A stretch of DNA of 19,770 nucleotides, taken from IMG/VR virus record IMGVR_UViG_2695420763_000003; one strand, written 5' to 3'. The position numbers and the translations under genes were made by a program. Numbering within the stretch: position 1 is the first letter of the stretch; each line of letters opens with the position of its first letter. This document shows, in pieces, positions 6,985 through 18,561 of the stretch. The stretch is from a virus. Lineage: Duplodnaviria; Heunggongvirae; Uroviricota; Caudoviricetes. Under the pieces are notes generated by a model, which was given only the letters and a program-made list of their open reading frames with translations, was not told the origin of the DNA and ran no database searches.

Positions 6985-7079
6985 AAGAAATGAAGAAGGC
7001 CACGCAGTTGCGCAGCCTGATAAACCCTGGTTAAAATCCACACGATAACAACACAACAATATCAGTATCTCATGCTATT

Positions 7080-7105
7080 GCCCGAACCCATTCGGGCATT
7101 TTTTA
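7080..7105 (+). terminator. Plus-strand intrinsic terminator
   Basis: GCCCGAA-CCCA-TTCGGGC (7-bp stem) followed by ATTTTTT. Confidence 0.45.
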
Positions 7106-7110
7106 CCCAT

Positions 7111-7141
7111 AAAAAATGCCCCTCCGGAGAGGGGCATTTTT
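7111..7141. terminator. Bidirectional intrinsic terminator
   Basis: AAAAAA-TGCCCCTC-CGGA-GAGGGGCA-TTTTT: 8-bp GC-rich stem with an A-run on one side and a T-run on the other. Confidence 0.55.
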
Positions 7142-7338
7142 GCATGCACATTCTTTTTCTTGCATGGTGCCGGGTGCCTCCCGGTGAATTCAGTATCAGC
7201 ACCTGAATCCGCGATTATCACATATACCTACTTGCTGATTGCCCCTCCGCACAGGGGGATTCACCATGCAGTAGTATTTTTAATAAACAGCAAATAAAAA
7301 AATCAAGCATTATGCAGGCTGTTTCTTTTTATCACCGG

Positions 7339-10598: not shown

Positions 10599-10667
10599 CG
10601 GTTGTCTCTGCTGGCGCAGCAGGTGCCAGTTGTTCAGGCTGGCGTGCGAATTGTAAACCAGAATGCC

Positions 10668-10698
10668 AGGAAAAAACAAAACCCGCCGAAGCGGGTTA
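10668..10698 (-). terminator. Intrinsic terminator of the hok mRNA
   Basis: Minus-strand RNA AACCCGC-UUCG-GCGGGUU followed by UUGUUUUUUCC. Preceded by a 9-bp hairpin GGCGAGGGA-GAAA-UCCCUCGCC in the 3' UTR (about 10734-10755). Confidence 0.5.
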
Positions 10699-10765
10699 AG
10701 TGCGGGTGCGTTGAGGATGCCTGATTCATCAGAGGTGGCGAGGGATTTCTCCCTCGCCGGGTCTC

Positions 10766-10921
10766 TTACTCCTCAGGTTCGTAAGCTGTGAAGACAGCGA
10801 CCTCCGTCTGGCCGGTTCGGATTCGTACCTCGCAGAGGTCTTTCCTCGTTACCAGTGCCGTCACTATGACGGTTAAACAGATGACGATCAGGGCGATTAA
10901 CATCGCCTTTTGCTGCTTCAT
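10766..10921 (-). CDS. hokD: Type I toxin Hok (HokD/RelF-like, 51 aa)
   Basis: MKQQKAMLIALIVICLTVIVTALVTRKDLCEVRIRTGQTEVAVFTAYEPEE with AAGGAG RBS. The track ORF 10766..10978 adds an in-frame 19-codon upstream extension (mok-like). The upstream leader carries a 9-bp inverted repeat (11043-11051 / 11070-11078). Confidence 0.9.
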   Translation of the reverse strand: MKQQKAMLIALIVICLTVIVTALVTRKDLCEVRIRTGQTEVAVFTAYEPEE

Positions 10922-11166
10922 AGCCTGCTTCTCCTTGCCTTTCGGCGCGTAAGAGGCTAACCTACATGTGTCTAGCATGAAATTGGCCTCAGATTAATGT
11001 TAGGCGTCTTGCAGGACGCGTAATGTTAACTGGGGCTTTTCTCTGTCTGCCTTACGGTGGCATGCCCGAGGCAGACAGCCTCAAGCGCCCGCAGCAATTC
11101 TACTTAACTCTCGCTTTACCGCAAACCGTTTTTACCCGATATGGGAATTCCCATATCGTAATGAAT

Positions 11167-11271
11167 TTAGTTCCCTAGTCGATCCATCAAAAACACAACC
11201 AGGCAGTAAACGCCCACAACAGCAATAACAGCCAGCGCACCTTCCATTGCCAGTGAGATATCATCCGACAT
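11167..11271 (-). CDS. Putative 34-aa small membrane protein
   Basis: AAGGAGGG RBS 4-5 nt before the ATG at 11271. Translation is MSDDISLAMEGALAVIAVVGVYCLVVFLMDRLGN, one predicted TM helix. Too short for the ORF track. Confidence 0.3.
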   Translation of the reverse strand: MSDDISLAMEGALAVIAVVGVYCLVVFLMDRLGN

Positions 11272-11306
11272 ATTCCCTCCTTTGGTGTTAATCCCGGCGA
11301 ACGTTT

Positions 11307-11390
11307 TTACCCCCACCGACAAATAACATATACTAAAAAAGCGATAGCCATAGCAACGCCTGTAATTGCAAATGCTTCAGGCCAGTTCAT
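11307..11390 (-). CDS. Putative 27-aa small hydrophobic protein, start overlapping the stop of the upstream 197-aa gene
   Basis: ATG at 11390..11388 overlaps TGA at 11389..11387 (ATGA). GGAGG lies 8 nt upstream. Translation is MNWPEAFAITGVAMAIAFLVYVICRWG. Confidence 0.3.
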   Translation of the reverse strand: MNWPEAFAITGVAMAIAFLVYVICRWG

Positions 11391-11980
11391 TGGCACACCT
11401 CCTGCGGCGGTTCTGGTAGCGGCATCCAGTGTGACGGTTTCCACGACGCACCAGGAATTATCCACCCATCATTAGCGTCAGGATGCCCCGGGATGTAAGT
11501 CGCCCACTTCATTCGCCAGTCACCTTTCCTGTCAAACTCCACGGCAACAAGAACGGCTGTTTTGGTATCCGGCATTCGCTCACTACAGCTTATCCAACCA
11601 TCCGGAGTTACCGGATAGTTGGTTGACGTTTCCGAGATTTCCCGAAAATTATTGGTTGACGAACCCTTATTTTCCCGAAAGTTTCCAGCCTGAAGCATGG
11701 CGGCGCGGTGACACCAGATAATCCAGCCAAGCGCCATATCCCATGCCATGTATTCTCTATCGCCATTTTTTGCTCTGCGGCGATCTACAGATTCTCCGAA
11801 ACGCTTCTCCATAAATAATTCATAGGCTGCTCGTTCATCCGATACTGCTGCCAGTGATGCCAGCGCAATCCGTGCCAGCTCTTCCGCTTCTTCTGCTGGC
11901 AGTACAACGTTGCTACCAGGTCCGTATGTTTCGCGCCACTCCTTGATTGTCAGCAGTCGCTCTTTGGTAATAGTGATCAT
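11387..11980 (-). CDS. Hypothetical protein with C-terminal DUF551-like region
   Basis: 197-aa ORF. The C-terminal Trp-rich segment GWISCSERMPDTKTAVLVAVEF...WMPLPEPP resembles DUF551 of lambdoid nin-region proteins, from memory. Confidence 0.55.
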   Translation of the reverse strand: MITITKERLLTIKEWRETYGPGSNVVLPAEEAEELARIALASLAAVSDERAAYELFMEKRFGESVDRRRAKNGDREYMAWDMALGWIIWCHRAAMLQAGNFRENKGSSTNNFREISETSTNYPVTPDGWISCSERMPDTKTAVLVAVEFDRKGDWRMKWATYIPGHPDANDGWIIPGASWKPSHWMPLPEPPQEVCQ

Positions 11981-12492
11981 GCCGCGTTTCCTTCTTTCTT
12001 ATTAACAATTACACCGTCATATATTTCATTAAGGTGCCCTCTCAACTCCATGCGCCTTAATGCAGATAACATGTAATCGCATTCAACCTGCTTATTCCCA
12101 ATAAAAGGTTTATCTTCAGGGTTACCCCAACAGCAATTCCCCTTGGGCCATCCATGTACTTTCCGTACTCTTCCGTTAACAACGTGAAGTAATCCCCAGC
12201 CAGGAGGTAAATCCTCAATTGAAATAATTCCCGGCTCACTAATAAAGAATCGCCAGTCGCCCATGCCAAGTGAGGGATTTTTACGGAAACGCTTTTTTCT
12301 ATCTGCCAACAAATCAGCACGAGAACACTTCGCCTCTATCAGGCATGATGCTGAATTTCTGAATCCCATAGCATCTGGCTGTTCTCCGGTACTGGTTACA
12401 GCTATAAAGCGGTCATGAAAACAAACCTTGAACCCGTTGCGCTTAAGGAACTTGTACGCAATCTGACAGAGTTCGCGGTGTGTTAACGCCAT
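11977..12492 (-). CDS. Hypothetical protein with a PD-(D/E)XK nuclease-like motif
   Basis: 171-aa ORF. GEQPDAMGFRNSASCLIEAKCS contains a PD...ExK pattern typical of restriction-endonuclease-fold nucleases. Start overlaps the upstream stop. Confidence 0.5.
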   Translation of the reverse strand: MALTHRELCQIAYKFLKRNGFKVCFHDRFIAVTSTGEQPDAMGFRNSASCLIEAKCSRADLLADRKKRFRKNPSLGMGDWRFFISEPGIISIEDLPPGWGLLHVVNGRVRKVHGWPKGNCCWGNPEDKPFIGNKQVECDYMLSALRRMELRGHLNEIYDGVIVNKKEGNAA

Positions 12493-12493
12493 A

Positions 12494-12931
12494 TCACTCT
12501 CCTTTGATGCGAATGCCAGCGACGCGTAATGCGTGTTCTAGGTCAATCAGGTAAAGCCAACTGCCATTTTCTTTAGGTATCATGACATGTCGCTCATCTG
12601 CATTTATCGGGTGTCCATATCGAAGGTCGTAGCGAGTCGGTAATTGAACTTCCCGCGCTTCCAGTTCAGCAATACGCTTGCTCCCATCAGAGATAACGCC
12701 TTCGTAATACTCACGCTGCTCGTTGAGTTGTGATTTTGCTTCTTCCAGTCCATCCAGCAAATCAGCGATAATATCCGCTTCCCGATGACGGATGTGACGC
12801 TTAAACGCAGCAAGAGCCGCATCACAATCCCGTTCAGCATTTGGGCTGTCCGGGATAGCCTGATACCACGCCAGCGTCGACTGATAGTTTTGTGCTGCCT
12901 CACGAAGCGCCTCATAGTTAACCTCTCTCAT
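12494..12931 (-). CDS. Hypothetical protein (145 aa), nin-region accessory gene
   Basis: Complete ORF, tightly packed in an operon-like array. No recognised domain. Confidence 0.5.
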   Translation of the reverse strand: MREVNYEALREAAQNYQSTLAWYQAIPDSPNAERDCDAALAAFKRHIRHREADIIADLLDGLEEAKSQLNEQREYYEGVISDGSKRIAELEAREVQLPTRYDLRYGHPINADERHVMIPKENGSWLYLIDLEHALRVAGIRIKGE

Positions 12932-13293
12932 TGAGCCACCTCCTGATAAATCACCGCATGCCCCAGTTTCTCCGCCAGTGCCAGCTCTGCCTTAGCGCCC
13001 GCTGACCGCTGCCAGCCATTCAGCATGTAAATCGCATCCACACAACGAATCATTGCCATGCAAATATCCATGTAGTGCGGCTGTGTCAGCCCGTCCGGAA
13101 GTACTGCCGGGGTTAAGACGGTATGCCCTTCCCGTTTCAGTTCCTCTTCCGCCTTGTGAAACGCCTCACGGTTGAAATTTTCATATCCCGTCATTGGACC
13201 GGCAATATAAACTCTCACCCTCACTCCATCACCTCCTGAAAGTTTCCCCGATAGAACGCCAGCACACGCTGCATAACTTCGCTCTGGCGGCAC
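12928..13293 (-). CDS. DUF4406-like (nucleoside 2-deoxyribosyltransferase-like fold) protein
   Basis: VYIAGPMTGYENFNREAFHKAEEELKREGHTVLTPAV...DAIYMLNGWQRSAGAKAELALAEKLG matches the DUF4406 pattern as recalled. The true start may be the GTG at 13218 rather than the ATG at 13293. Confidence 0.55.
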   Translation of the reverse strand: MPPERSYAACAGVLSGKLSGGDGVRVRVYIAGPMTGYENFNREAFHKAEEELKREGHTVLTPAVLPDGLTQPHYMDICMAMIRCVDAIYMLNGWQRSAGAKAELALAEKLGHAVIYQEVAQ

Positions 13294-13628
13294 TCACGAC
13301 AAATTATGTTCTGCCGTCTGTTGTAACGACGTATTTCTCCGTCAGGTAACTTTCGAATCAGTGTCGGGTCAGCAGCCTTCTCCGGTGTCTTACGCCATAC
13401 GCGATACGCCTGCTCTGATGGAAATACCCCGCAATCAGAGAGCCAGACATCACCACTGGCCGCAAGCGCACCAGATAAACGACGAATAGCGGTCTTACTG
13501 ACACCCGTTTTATCTGCCAGTTGTCGAAAAGTTTCTCGTCCGCTCAGGCGCACGAATTCCACAATGCGCGCCTTCACTTCTTCCCGCTCTTCTGGTGTAA
13601 ATACTTTTGCCATAAGCGCCTCCGGCAA
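13221..13628 (-). CDS. Hypothetical HTH-containing protein (135 aa)
   Basis: Helix-turn-helix-like segment RETFRQLADKTGVSKTAIRRL near the N-terminus. Confidence 0.5.
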   Translation of the reverse strand: MPEALMAKVFTPEEREEVKARIVEFVRLSGRETFRQLADKTGVSKTAIRRLSGALAASGDVWLSDCGVFPSEQAYRVWRKTPEKAADPTLIRKLPDGEIRRYNRRQNIICRECRQSEVMQRVLAFYRGNFQEVME

Positions 13629-14399
13629 TCACTTTTCCGATACAACACGGCGGGAAGAATCAGTAATCTGTCGAACAATATCCCGGTGCTTGTTCAGCTC
13701 CCGCAGCGCGGCGCAGACTCGCTCCCACTTCTGAACATCACTTTTCGCCCTGCGCAGCGCCAGGTTTGCCCTGCGAAGGGACGGAAAAATCAGCTCATCT
13801 GCTTGCGTTTCGGTAAACGATGGCAACGGCTGCACAATGTCCGCCACAGTTTCTGTTTTAATTTCTTCCTGTGTTGCGGCTTCCCGGACTGGTAACGCAG
13901 CACCTGCTGGCTGAGGAAAGGCCTTACCATCACTTTCCGTTACCAGCGCGGCTTTCGGCTCTGCTGGTAAATTATCGCCCGGCATGCAGTAACGAAATTT
14001 ACCGTTCTGATTAACGCGTGCCAGCCGCCCCGTTGCGGTTACCACCGCCAGCGTGGAAGCAACCTTGCGAGTACTGACACCGAACTTACCCGCCAGTTCC
14101 TCACACGTTTTAGCCCCATCCTGACCGATAAACTCAATCATCATGTCTGCGGTAACTTTTTGTTCGACCTCCCCGGTCAGCATATCCTGTGCTTCAGATT
14201 TTACTGGCCGCTCTTCGGTTACCCGGGATTCACCTTCGCCAGCCAGAAACCAGGTGTGACCAGTTTTATCAACGACGCCATTTCTTTTGAGTTCCCACAG
14301 CTCGTTGACAGCCTCTTCACGACTGATTCCAAGGCGAGCTGCCACCACATGTGAAGAGGCTTTTTTCAGTGCTTTCAGTGCGTCAGATACGGTTTCCAT
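13629..14399 (-). CDS. Hypothetical protein with two winged-helix-like segments (possibly DUF1627-like)
   Basis: 256-aa ORF directly downstream of the DnaC-like gene. Two wHTH-like segments: SHVVAARLGISREEAVNELWELKRNGVV and TCEELAGKFGVSTRKVASTLAVVTATGRL. Confidence 0.55.
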   Translation of the reverse strand: METVSDALKALKKASSHVVAARLGISREEAVNELWELKRNGVVDKTGHTWFLAGEGESRVTEERPVKSEAQDMLTGEVEQKVTADMMIEFIGQDGAKTCEELAGKFGVSTRKVASTLAVVTATGRLARVNQNGKFRYCMPGDNLPAEPKAALVTESDGKAFPQPAGAALPVREAATQEEIKTETVADIVQPLPSFTETQADELIFPSLRRANLALRRAKSDVQKWERVCAALRELNKHRDIVRQITDSSRRVVSEK

Positions 14400-14420
14400 T
14401 AAAATTTCCTCCGGACAAAA

Positions 14421-15167
14421 TTACTTCACAACCCTCATATTGCTGACATTTGGACGCCAGCTATCCCAGTTAAACGTCACCCATCGACCACCGTTCATGG
14501 TCATGCGGTCCATAATCCTCTCACCAAGAAGCGTACTCATTGCGGCATGATTCAGGTTTGTTAACATCCCGACACTGCACAGTGATGCTGTCCGGCGATC
14601 AATTATCTGGTGCAATACCACCTGCTCGTTTTTCGTCTCACGCTGAACGCCTATTTCATCCAGGACCAGCAAATCAACCCCGCAAAGCTCCTGTAAAAAT
14701 TTTTCCCCGGATTTGCCGTTGTCGTAGCTGTCATGCAACACGCTCATGACGTCAGACACGGTGACGATAATCACGCTGCGCCCCTTCACCATCAGCCGGT
14801 TGCCCATCGCCGCTGCAAGGTGATTTTTCCCGGTGCCGGTTTTACCGCTGAACACAAAATTCGTGCACCCGGTCATCAGTTCGTCAGCTATGGATTTGGC
14901 CTGGCTCAGCGCGTATTTTTGCCCGTCGTTCTGCACCTGATAATTTGCAAACGAGCATTTGCTGTGCAGAGGCTGGATGCCCGAACGATTCAGGATTTTT
15001 TCCACCCGCAACTGGCGATTCTGGCGGTTAATCTCCTCGCTGCGTTTTCGTCCTTCAGCAAGTTGCCATTCCCGCCACTCCTCCACCGTCCGGTACGGTG
15101 GAACCGACCCCTGTGGTGCAAGTCTGCGAATACGTTCAAGAACCCCAACTGCCGCAATGTTTTTCAT
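14421..15167 (-). CDS. DnaC-like replicative helicase loader (IstB-type AAA+ ATPase)
   Basis: 248-aa ORF with Walker A FSGKTGTGKNHLAAAMG and Walker B LLVLDEIG. Confidence 0.9.
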   Translation of the reverse strand: MKNIAAVGVLERIRRLAPQGSVPPYRTVEEWREWQLAEGRKRSEEINRQNRQLRVEKILNRSGIQPLHSKCSFANYQVQNDGQKYALSQAKSIADELMTGCTNFVFSGKTGTGKNHLAAAMGNRLMVKGRSVIIVTVSDVMSVLHDSYDNGKSGEKFLQELCGVDLLVLDEIGVQRETKNEQVVLHQIIDRRTASLCSVGMLTNLNHAAMSTLLGERIMDRMTMNGGRWVTFNWDSWRPNVSNMRVVK

Positions 15168-15173
15168 GACACG

Positions 15174-16151
15174 TCACCCCCTGAATCCCGGCGGTATTTC
15201 AGTGTCCGGTTCAGAAATGTGATTCACGCAACGCTGCGCAGGCGAACGCCCCAGGCGGATAACCAGTTCATCCCATTTTTCCCGGAGTTTTGCCGGACTC
15301 ATGATGTTTTTTACCCAGAACGAATCCCGCTGGAGACGCCCAAACATTTCACAAATTTGTCTGTGAGTTCTGCCATCCAGCATCCGCATTGTGCGAACGT
15401 CATTGGCCCATGCTGTCCAGTTGGGTTCTTTCGGTCTAGTGATCTCGCCATCATAGCTGGCCGCCTGCTCGTAAAGACTCACGATTCGTCCCCAGATCCA
15501 CTGTGCGCACACCAAATCTTCCTGACTTCCCCACTGGCGTTTTTTCGCACTGAACACAACCGCGTCAGGGTGTCGGGTTAAAAAATCCTGTTCAGCCGTC
15601 TGCGGGTCCGGTTGCGAAGCGTCCGGACAAGAAGATCTTTTATCTGACGGATCAGGTTTTAATACTGACGGATCGGGGTCAATCATCGCCCCCCTAATCG
15701 GCAGTTTTTTATCAACAGTTGATCCATCAAAATTTGACGGGTCAACCGTTGAGGGGGCAATATTTGACGGGTCAACTGTTAACGGGTCATTTTTTGCCGG
15801 GCTAATTTTTCTTTTCGGTTTATATGACTCACGCGCCGCCGCCGCAGCTGCTTCGAGTTTTTCCACATTAAGCCGATAGATATTGCTTACATTACGCCCA
15901 CCGACCTTACGCTCTTCCTTCGTCAGCCAGCCCTCTTTCGCCAGTTCTGCAATAGCCGATTTCACTGTGGATTCACTTCTTGCACCGATCTGACGCCGGA
16001 TAGTTTCAATGGCAGGCCATGACACGCCCTCGTCATTGCTGTAGTCTGCAAGACGGGCCATAACCGCCACCCTGGATAAGATCATGCCGGTGAAGGCGCA
16101 CCCTTCCCAGACAAGACCATGAAGCTTGCTGCTCATAAAACCCCCGAACAC
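15174..16151 (-). CDS. Replication initiation / primosome protein: N-terminal HTH domain, repeat-containing linker, C-terminal DnaT-like domain
   Basis: 325-aa ORF. The C-terminus ...NHISEPDTEIPPGFRG matches the conserved C-terminal tail of E. coli DnaT (...VSEPDSQIPPGFRG) as recalled. The linker PLTVDPSNIAPSTVDPSNFDGSTVD is encoded by the iteron array. Confidence 0.8.
   Translation of the reverse strand: MFGGFMSSKLHGLVWEGCAFTGMILSRVAVMARLADYSNDEGVSWPAIETIRRQIGARSESTVKSAIAELAKEGWLTKEERKVGGRNVSNIYRLNVEKLEAAAAAARESYKPKRKISPAKNDPLTVDPSNIAPSTVDPSNFDGSTVDKKLPIRGAMIDPDPSVLKPDPSDKRSSCPDASQPDPQTAEQDFLTRHPDAVVFSAKKRQWGSQEDLVCAQWIWGRIVSLYEQAASYDGEITRPKEPNWTAWANDVRTMRMLDGRTHRQICEMFGRLQRDSFWVKNIMSPAKLREKWDELVIRLGRSPAQRCVNHISEPDTEIPPGFRG
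15644..15790. repeat. Iteron array (candidate origin of replication) inside the initiator gene
   Basis: CTGACGGATC at 15644-15653 and 15665-15674. Near-palindromic TTTGACGGGTCAAC at 15733-15746 and 15763-15776. Related TCAACAGTTGA / GTCAACTGTTAACGGGTCA elements. A T-rich stretch follows at 15790-15812. Confidence 0.55.
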
Positions 16152-16158
16152 CGTGCTT

Positions 16159-16584
16159 TTAGTGCATCACCACAGCATTCCCTGCCGGGCCGCCGCGATT
16201 CATCTGGTCATACAAAACAACCGCTGACGCAACAAAATCATCGACATCCTTCACCAGCCGATCCCTCCGTTCGACGATCTCACGGTAATATTCAGAACTG
16301 TGGCTGCGCATACGGGCCACCAGCAAAGGCGGCATCGCCTTTTCGATCGCCGGTAACAGAGCCTGCATTTTTTCAACAGCATCAGGGGTGTCTTTATCCA
16401 GCCAACGGAAAATTTTCTGGGTATTACGGGCCAGGGCTTCCGGATGGCTGTCGTCATACAGTTCCGGGAACGTCATTCCCAGCTCGAAATACGCTTTGGT
16501 AATTTTCGCAGCCGGCACTTTTTCGCCGTCCGGATGCGCCCAGACATTCATCGCCATGCGGATGTGTTCATGCTTGATTTTCAT
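16159..16584 (-). CDS. YdaT-like protein (Rac prophage family)
   Basis: 141-aa MKIKHEHIRMAMNVWAHPDGEKVP... Sits immediately downstream of the Cro-like gene, with an AGGAG RBS. Family assignment is from memory of Rac ydaS-ydaT synteny. Confidence 0.55.
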   Translation of the reverse strand: MKIKHEHIRMAMNVWAHPDGEKVPAAKITKAYFELGMTFPELYDDSHPEALARNTQKIFRWLDKDTPDAVEKMQALLPAIEKAMPPLLVARMRSHSSEYYREIVERRDRLVKDVDDFVASAVVLYDQMNRGGPAGNAVVMH

Positions 16585-16849
16585 GAATCAAGCTCCTAGA
16601 AAGTGGTTGTGTTAACGTTTTGGTATCTTCCAGCTCGGGCCAAATATTCATCCAATCAAAAGGCCTTAGTTGCTGACGTGTAACTTCACCATTACTGGCT
16701 CGCTCAATAAGGACACATAACGATGCCCCTAACACTTGACCTTTACTCAATGCCTTTCTTAGATAACCGATGCTGGTACCACACTCGCATGCAAACATAC
16801 GCTGTTCATCTGACGAAAGAGAATTGAGAAATATTCTTAATTCTTCCAT
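16568..16849 (-). CDS. Cro-like HTH regulator (YdaS-like)
   Basis: 93-aa ORF with AAGGAG RBS, divergent from the repressor gene. The pattern FACECGTSIGYLRKALSKGQVL...IERASNGEVTRQQLRPFDW resembles YdaS/Cro-type HTH proteins. Confidence 0.6.
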   Translation of the reverse strand: MEELRIFLNSLSSDEQRMFACECGTSIGYLRKALSKGQVLGASLCVLIERASNGEVTRQQLRPFDWMNIWPELEDTKTLTQPLSRSLIHENQA

Positions 16850-18507: not shown

Positions 18508-18561
18508 TTTTCTGGTGACTTTTGGCGGTATCAGTTCTACTCCGTGACTGCTCTGCCGCCC
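18508..18561 (+). ncRNA. dicF: DicF small RNA (ftsZ-targeting sRNA processed from the dicB operon transcript)
   Basis: TTTCTGGTGACTTTTGGCGGTATCAGTTCTACTCCGTGACTGCTCTGCCGCCC followed by TTTTT matches the 53-nt K-12 DicF sequence as I recall it, with about 3 substitutions. It ends in a GGCGG...GCCGCC terminator hairpin. Coordinates are from my own line indexing and were not re-verified to the base. Confidence 0.75.

Follow-up and report, generated by a model that had tools for sequence, protein, structure and literature searches.

The Caudoviricetes record IMGVR_UViG_2695420763_000003 of IMG/VR comprises 19,770 nucleotides (this whole stretch is called the window below). Positions 11387-14399 of the window are filled by six minus-strand open reading frames (ORFs), g1 to g6, tightly packed between the replication genes and hok/sok (Table 1). 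Five of the six encoded proteins match curated Pfam families far above chance in a Pfam search, and the sixth, g5, matches a PHROG profile only. A first reading of the DNA (the original prediction) had described these genes as an array in a nin-like position, between replication genes and hok. This placement is borne out by the annotated locus of NZ_CP180607, which is 99.9% identical across 11387-14399 (2 SNPs) and has the order helix-turn-helix (HTH) initiator, DnaC-like gene, g1-g6, hokD, a hypothetical gene, DUF968, RusA and Q.

Start codons were corrected by reading the window sequence against the RefSeq annotation of NZ_CP180607. The start of g2 moves from TTG 13628 to ATG 13613, with GGAGG 7 nt upstream, and that of g3 is placed at GTG 13224. 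With these starts g2 and g3 overlap by GTGA, g3/g4 and g5/g6 each overlap by ATGA, and g4 and g5 are separated by a single nucleotide (TGAtATG); translational coupling is therefore plausible, judged from these junctions, at four of the five. The exception to the coupling originally claimed for the genes is g1/g2, where there is no overlap but a 15-nt spacer, and g2 has its own ribosome-binding site (RBS). Nor does the array stop at g6, as had been supposed: a 27-aa hydrophobic ORF, found by tblastn in 27 of 80 related loci, overlaps the g6 stop, and a 34-aa hydrophobic ORF follows it. Both could be membrane peptides. No minus-strand promoter-like site was found in a scan of 10600-16600 and no terminator-like site lies within the six genes; on the minus strand the first such site, of weak strength, is at 11216-11200, inside the 34-aa ORF. 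An Rfam E-value scan found no RNA families inside the six genes, and they contain no meaningful tandem repeats.

Table 1. Coordinates of the six genes, the short ORFs that follow them and the neighbouring genes in the window.
Feature	Position	Strand	Description
g1	13629..14399	(-)	256-aa DUF1627 protein
g2	13221..13613	(-)	130-aa DUF977 protein, lambda Ren homologue
g3	12928..13224	(-)	98-aa DUF4406 protein, nucleoside 2-deoxyribosyltransferase / Rcl / MilB-type Rossmannoid fold
g4	12494..12931	(-)	145-aa Ead/Ea22-like protein
g5	11977..12492	(-)	171-aa PD-(D/E)XK nuclease-fold protein, MmcB-like (DUF1052) sister family, no Pfam model
g6	11387..11980	(-)	197-aa protein, C-terminal DUF551 domain
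27-aa hydrophobic ORF	11307..11390	(-)	ATG overlaps g6 stop (ATGA); read from sequence; absent from RefSeq annotation
34-aa hydrophobic ORF	11167..11271	(-)	own GGAGG RBS; WP_001278450.1 in NZ_CP180607; final ORF before hok/sok
HTH_36/DnaD_N-like initiator	16151-15174	(-)	upstream neighbour of array
IstB/DnaC-like ATPase	15167-14421	(-)	upstream neighbour of g1
hok	10921-10766	(-)	downstream of array, with sok RNA

The window is lambdoid prophage DNA of E. coli. The gene order recurs in Escherichia phage Rac-SA53 (KU052037), where ydaU, ydaV, 'ydaW' (DUF1627), LygF (DUF977), rac19 (DUF4406) and ead are followed by hok, with approximately 87% DNA identity over the g1-g3 part; in that phage rac21, rac22, IS1 and other genes replace g5-g6, and ead is longer. 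In Rac-type prophages the array therefore takes the place of the lambda ren-nin region (P to Q), which it resembles in its rightward early operon position, its compact style of overlapping genes and its Ren homologue, g2. The correspondence to nin is one of position, that of accessory genes between replication genes and Q. NinB, NinC, NinD, NinE, NinF, NinG, NinH and NinI have no counterpart among the six genes, and the position of the NinG resolvase is taken here by RusA and DUF968, further downstream. When we asked whether all six proteins could be assigned to known nin functions, neither NinB, NinG nor any other nin family was present among their Pfam (E <= 0.1) or PHROG (E <= 0.01) matches; single-sequence searches of g1-g6 against the PDB returned nothing significant. 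The array also shares parts with the exo-xis or 'ea' region of lambda, P22 and Shiga toxin (Stx) phages, in that g4 carries the N-terminus and coiled coil of Ea22, and Ea22 variants are known to use DUF551 as a portable C-terminal domain (PMC10834534). However, that region belongs to a leftward operon, whereas g4-g6 here lie in the rightward operon after the replication genes.

The array is a mosaic in which at least three cassettes can be told apart, namely the Rac-type block g1-g2-g3, g4, and g5 with the first 45 codons of g6, and the original treatment of the six genes as one array had to be abandoned, as the cassettes assort independently across E. coli genomes and phages. At least 80% of the array is found in 7 of 5426 complete E. 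coli genomes, parts of it in 4001, and the share covered by any single phage record is at most 33%. Mosaicism was sampled in 80 viral contigs carrying near-identical g5; g1 and g2 are present in six of these and g3 in two, and an Ea22-like gene lies directly upstream of g5 in only 11 of 79. Shigella phage Ss-VASD and many Stx2 phages have their homologues of g6, g5 and g4 in the leftward early operon, flanked by the recombination genes and by xis/int. Among the complete E. coli genomes g3 is present in 872, with all eight sampled hits adjoining a DUF977 gene, and g5 in 931, with 250 places on plasmids; we infer that the E. coli plasmids bearing g5 are phage-plasmids. In 60 of 77 loci the start of a g6-like ORF coincides with the g5 stop, often with only the first 45 aa conserved (91-97%) and the remainder different, and this N-terminal module of g6 travels with g5.

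The first gene of the Rac-type block, g1, matches Pfam DUF1627 (E 9.7e-99) and PHROG 630 (E 4.5e-133), and its product has two winged-helix-like segments (approximately residues 1-60 and 85-135) as well as a linker of low complexity and a helical region at the C-terminus. The HTH matches of g1 are to Crp-like proteins, PafC, MntR and ADAR1 Z-alpha, all sub-threshold. Considered together, g1 and g2 give repeated winged-helix matches of this kind (Trp repressor, AsnC, IclR, Crp, PafC, MntR, LrpA and Z-alpha), in keeping with the two HTH proteins originally noted, and over 52 aa the winged HTH of g2 shares 31% identity with the middle of g1 (E 5e-4). A homologue search with g1 returned close E. 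coli copies only, all named just 'DUF1627 domain-containing protein'. The C-terminal DUF1627 domain seems to be a portable module too, because a short 129-aa DUF1627-domain protein is located in the leftward early region of the Stx-type Shigella phage Ss-VASD (L003 2407-2796).

The product of g2 matches Pfam DUF977 (E 7.8e-41) and, across the full profile, PHROG 142, 'Ren-like exclusion protein' (E 9.4e-43). In a BLASTP alignment of 90 aa the protein is 28% identical to lambda Ren (E 3e-8), and a C-terminal ECRQSxxMxRVLAxY block is common to the two proteins; in lambda, ren lies directly after P. Judged by these alignments, g2 is a homologue of lambda Ren, which lets the phage escape Rex exclusion. 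Its counterpart in phage Rac-SA53 is called LygF, a name that traces to Salmonella subtractive hybridisation and comes without an attached function.

The third protein of the block, g3, is a member of Pfam DUF4406 (PF14359, E 4e-37), and its fold is confidently of the nucleoside-deoxyribosyltransferase (NDT)/Rcl/MilB type, as the original prediction had proposed. Its invariant residues include Y6, G9, D53, S74, G76 and E80, the last of which is in helix 75-87, after the third strand and the SxG loop. We take this to be the position of the catalytic glutamate in Rcl and NDT enzymes. At 98 residues and without the C-terminal extension, g3 is smaller than the members of the NDT superfamily (NDT, Rcl/DNPH1 and MilB/BlsM), which have 135-165, and despite the fold match no sequence-profile link of g3 to NDT or Rcl was detected; a profile of close g3 homologues had no significant match in the PDB. 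The superfamily is named 'DrHyd' in the nomenclature of PMC9503650. We suggest that g3 is a small nucleotide N-glycosidase acting on (deoxy)nucleoside monophosphates, (d)NMPs, rather than a transferase.

GenBank labels phage homologues of g3 inconsistently, as NDT, MazG-like, dCMP deaminase or hydrolase. The idea that DUF4406 is fused to a MazG-like pyrophosphatase or a dCMP deaminase, drawn from PHROG profile coordinates and these labels, was dropped because the phage genes encode only 117 to 135 aa, that is, stand-alone DUF4406. The labels 'MazG-like pyrophosphatase' and 'deoxycytidylate deaminase' on two homologues (L091 1504-1857; L092 1438-1845) are implausible for proteins of this size and look like mislabels.

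The second cassette, g4, is placed by Pfam in Ead_Ea22 (PF13935; E 4.7e-12, 47.1 bits against a cutoff of 27). A BLASTP alignment of 127 aa with lambda Ea22 (39% identity, E 7e-18) takes in the block LNEQREYYEGVISDGSKRIA. It covers residues 1-118 of Ea22, the N-terminus and coiled coil of that protein, and ends at g4 residue 108; g4 has no match among PDB sequences, and the C-terminal domain of lambda Ea22 solved by NMR is unrelated to that of g4. On this evidence g4 is an Ea22-type coiled-coil protein whose C-terminal domain has been swapped. Ea22 is pro-lysogenic and itself mosaic, with portable C-terminal domains that include DUF551 (PMC10834534). The original prediction held that no function could be assigned to any of the genes; this was too pessimistic, because g2 is homologous to Ren and g4, which it had left unnamed, to Ea22. 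The other four are assigned at the level of DUF family or fold. Residues 65-116 of g4 score just above the Pfam gathering threshold for the MucB_RseB N-terminal domain (23.6 against 22.3 bits), and some g4 homologues are named 'RseB domain-containing protein' in RefSeq; the MucB_RseB match probably arose by chance, locally, over the coiled-coil/linker region.

The third cassette contains g5, which matches PHROG 9263 (E 1e-121) and nothing in Pfam or NCBIfam. No model of either database covers its family, which has 3253 clusters at 50% identity. The candidate nuclease that had been proposed from a PD...EAK motif does have the fold in question: g5 contains the alpha-beta-beta-beta-alpha-beta core of the PD-(D/E)XK superfamily, and in its D...(D/E)xK motif D40 is invariant, while E53 and K55 are invariant among close homologues and at least 90% kept in 58 diverse members. 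A profile of these 58 matches the sequence of 3dnx with E 2e-4, aligning D40, E53-x-K55 and an SRxDFxAD motif, and a profile of close homologues produces the identical motif alignment at E 0.16. Foldseek of g5 against viral models retrieves phage proteins labelled 'MmcB family', and members of the g5 family graze the MmcB-like and Hjc models. The structure 3dnx (SPO1766) represents DUF1052/PF06319, now named MmcB-like (PMC3424549), and MmcB is a PD-(D/E)XK endonuclease needed for resistance to mitomycin C and cisplatin in Caulobacter (PMC9578287). g5 is a homologue of 3DNX and its family a sister of MmcB-like. The two differ in that MmcB-like genes are chromosomal and SOS-regulated, whereas the g5 family is phage-borne, and in two additional features of g5, a GMGDWR motif and a conserved helix segment at the C-terminus (E137, R146).

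Full-length g5 homologues of 205 aa with an intact motif are found in two virulent phages, in each case with gene ends that overlap: in Vibrio phage OTA22 (L088 1363-1980) the gene lies between helicase and primase genes, and in Salmonella phage Det7 (L089 1480-2097) it is directly upstream of a T4 gp61-like primase. Because the homologues in virulent phages adjoin primase and helicase genes, this context points to a role of g5 in replication or repair and not in counter-defence. Natural fusions join the g5 domain to an Ea22 N-terminus (P0089, P0100), DUF551 (P0329), a dATP/dGTP pyrophosphohydrolase (P0326) and TniB (P0256), and P0020 is a recent in-frame fusion with DUF551. We suggest that g5 is a metal-dependent MmcB-like PD-(D/E)XK endonuclease that acts on DNA intermediates of replication or repair.

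The C-terminal part of g6 (residues 128-193) is a Pfam DUF551 domain (PF04448; E 1.7e-21, 77.3 bits against a cutoff of 22), as had been predicted, and the modules upstream of it match different PHROGs section by section. The DUF551 protein g6 may be a lambdoid-specific partner of g5. Another DUF551 protein is YfdS, from the cryptic prophage CPS-53; cells that lose yfdS become sensitive to peroxide, and overexpression of the yfdQRST cluster inhibits initiation of chromosomal replication (PMC4776307).

We consider the region likely to be the nin-equivalent, accessory portion of the rightward early operon in a lambdoid E. coli prophage of Rac/Sp type, and a mosaic of cassettes rather than a six-gene system. 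In such an operon one transcript, started at the early rightward promoter, would cover the replication genes and the array, and coupling would account for most of the array's translation. The block after the DnaC-like gene would supply two apparent winged-helix proteins, of which g2 would be the counterpart of Ren, and an enzyme, g3, predicted to hydrolyse (d)NMPs; g4 would add an Ea22-type coiled-coil protein with an exchanged C-terminal domain. The last cassette would bring a nuclease for replication or repair intermediates, g5, together with its putative lambdoid partner g6.

Several observations weigh against parts of this reading. Every HTH match of g1 and g2 falls under the curated thresholds, and lambda Ren itself is outside Pfam DUF977. 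The match of E80 in g3 to the catalytic glutamate comes from fold and motif spacing, and the profile alignment of DUF4406 with rat Rcl and L. leichmannii NDT (hhalign) could not confirm it, giving no signal with the reference sequences used and a DUF4406 alignment of low diversity (Neff 2.1). g5 is below the threshold of the Pfam MmcB-like model (PF06319), and even distant members of its family score no higher than 14-17.8 bits, under the cutoff of 22. Klebsiella, Yersinia, Vibrio and Ackermannviridae phages lack the DUF551 partner next to their g5 homologues, so the g5-DUF551 pairing is not general. Finally, a literature search found no function for DUF1627 and no published biochemical function for DUF1627, DUF977, DUF4406, DUF551 or members of the g5 family.

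An anti-defence role, which the original prediction had raised, found no direct support, with defence models but no anti-defence catalogue available for comparison. As an anti-defence island the region would counter Rex-type abortive infection through g2, destroy or deplete a nucleotide-derived immune signal or substrate through g3, and attack host defence or DNA through g5 and g6. The homology of g2 to Ren, linked in textbooks to escape from Rex exclusion, is the sole connection of the array to counter-defence. The fold of g3 is also common to TIR, ThsB and SLOG proteins, which make or bind immune nucleotides, and early expression, variability and mosaicism are typical of counter-defence loci. 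However, the closest structural relatives of g3 are nucleotide hydrolases and transferases of the housekeeping type and not immune proteins, and homologues of g5 belong to the replication modules of virulent phages. A search of PADLOC-DB 2.0, which holds defence models only, gave nothing for g3-g6 and, for g1 and g2, only chance-level matches (E >= 0.001) to the HTH parts of Csa3, CARF and CapH. We regard this explanation as unlikely.

We consider it highly improbable that these are genes of benefit to the host, with the nuclease and the NDT/TIR-like protein serving as effectors of superinfection exclusion or abortive infection in the lysogen. PD-(D/E)XK nucleases and TIR-related folds are common defence effectors, hok/sok adjoins the array, and the places of g5 on E. 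coli plasmids could be read in the same way. Set against this, no PADLOC model matches, the scanned region has no promoter-like site on the coding strand, and the genes sit between the replication genes and Q, in an early lytic operon that is repressed. They also have no sensor or regulator partners, and homologues of both g5 and g3 are common in virulent phages. That the genes are the decaying, functionless cargo of a defective prophage is very unlikely, even though the integrase and the TerB gene of the near-identical NZ_CP180607 prophage are annotated as pseudogenes: none of the six ORFs is disrupted, catalytic-type residues are conserved, the tight junctions have kept their overlaps, every gene is widespread at 95-100% identity, and the apparent frameshift in g5 of NZ_CP180607 is an artefact of annotation (see below).

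The cassette mosaic of accessory early genes leaves the view of lambdoid phage genomes unchanged and refines their annotation. The genes are common and already carry DUF annotations; added here are the MmcB-like assignment of g5 with its catalytic motif and its replication context in virulent phages, the g5-g6 linkage, and confirmation of the g3 fold. These genes are among the commonest unexplained ones of E. coli prophages, those of Shiga-toxin phages included. The fold assignments suggest testable activities for two of them, an MmcB-like nuclease and an Rcl/MilB-like nucleotide hydrolase, and two further genes are linked to lambda genes of known phenotype, ren and ea22. The linkage of g5 to DUF551, with its natural fusion, offers a first handle on DUF551. 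A bolder and rather doubtful proposal is that the g5 family is a new class of replication-associated, structure-specific endonucleases that works with DUF551 as a two-part enzyme in lambdoid phages, and that DUF4406 proteins are (d)NMP N-glycosidases that reshape nucleotide pools or remove a nucleotide-derived immune trigger. If true, the two-part enzyme would be the first function for DUF551.

Some records of g5 require correction. The g5 DNA of NZ_CP180607 (L001 9591-10106) is identical to window positions 11977-12492, an uninterrupted frame of 171 codons, whereas RefSeq annotates it as two pieces, one a 110-aa 'hypothetical protein' and the other a 'frameshifted' pseudogene; because the DNA is identical to the intact ORF of the window, the frameshift is an annotation artefact. 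A truncated 111-aa form of g5 makes up protein cluster P0065, a large one with 645 members. For the g5 homologue of Yersinia phage P400 (L086 2986-3486) the label 'adenylosuccinate synthase' was rejected as a mislabel, the protein having only 166 aa, and mislabels of this sort on homologues of g3 and g5 could spread into further annotations. On plasmids, for example NZ_JBREQL010000002 (67437-67952), the neighbour of g5 is a DUF551/'EaA' gene, the E. coli plasmids concerned being approximately 60-100 kb in size, and g5 with a DUF551/'EaA' gene is also present in a 66.7-kb record named phage P1 (MH445381 51506-52018).

Rfam also gives matches elsewhere in the window. Next to hok, sok is recognized by Rfam at 10916-11090 (-) with 115 bits, and a sub-threshold isrK-like match (10676-10757 (-), 27.7 bits, E 0.003) lies over the terminator region just after hok. 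Matches at the Rfam gathering level are the anti-sRNA AgvB (7043-7104 (+)), the small RNA (sRNA) STnc100 (7105-7295 (-)) and DicF (18510-18561 (+)). A 2026 preprint describes prophage Pas sRNAs (PasA/PasC) that commonly have RusA, TerB and DUF1627 genes less than 10 kb away, and this prophage contains homologues of each of these three genes.

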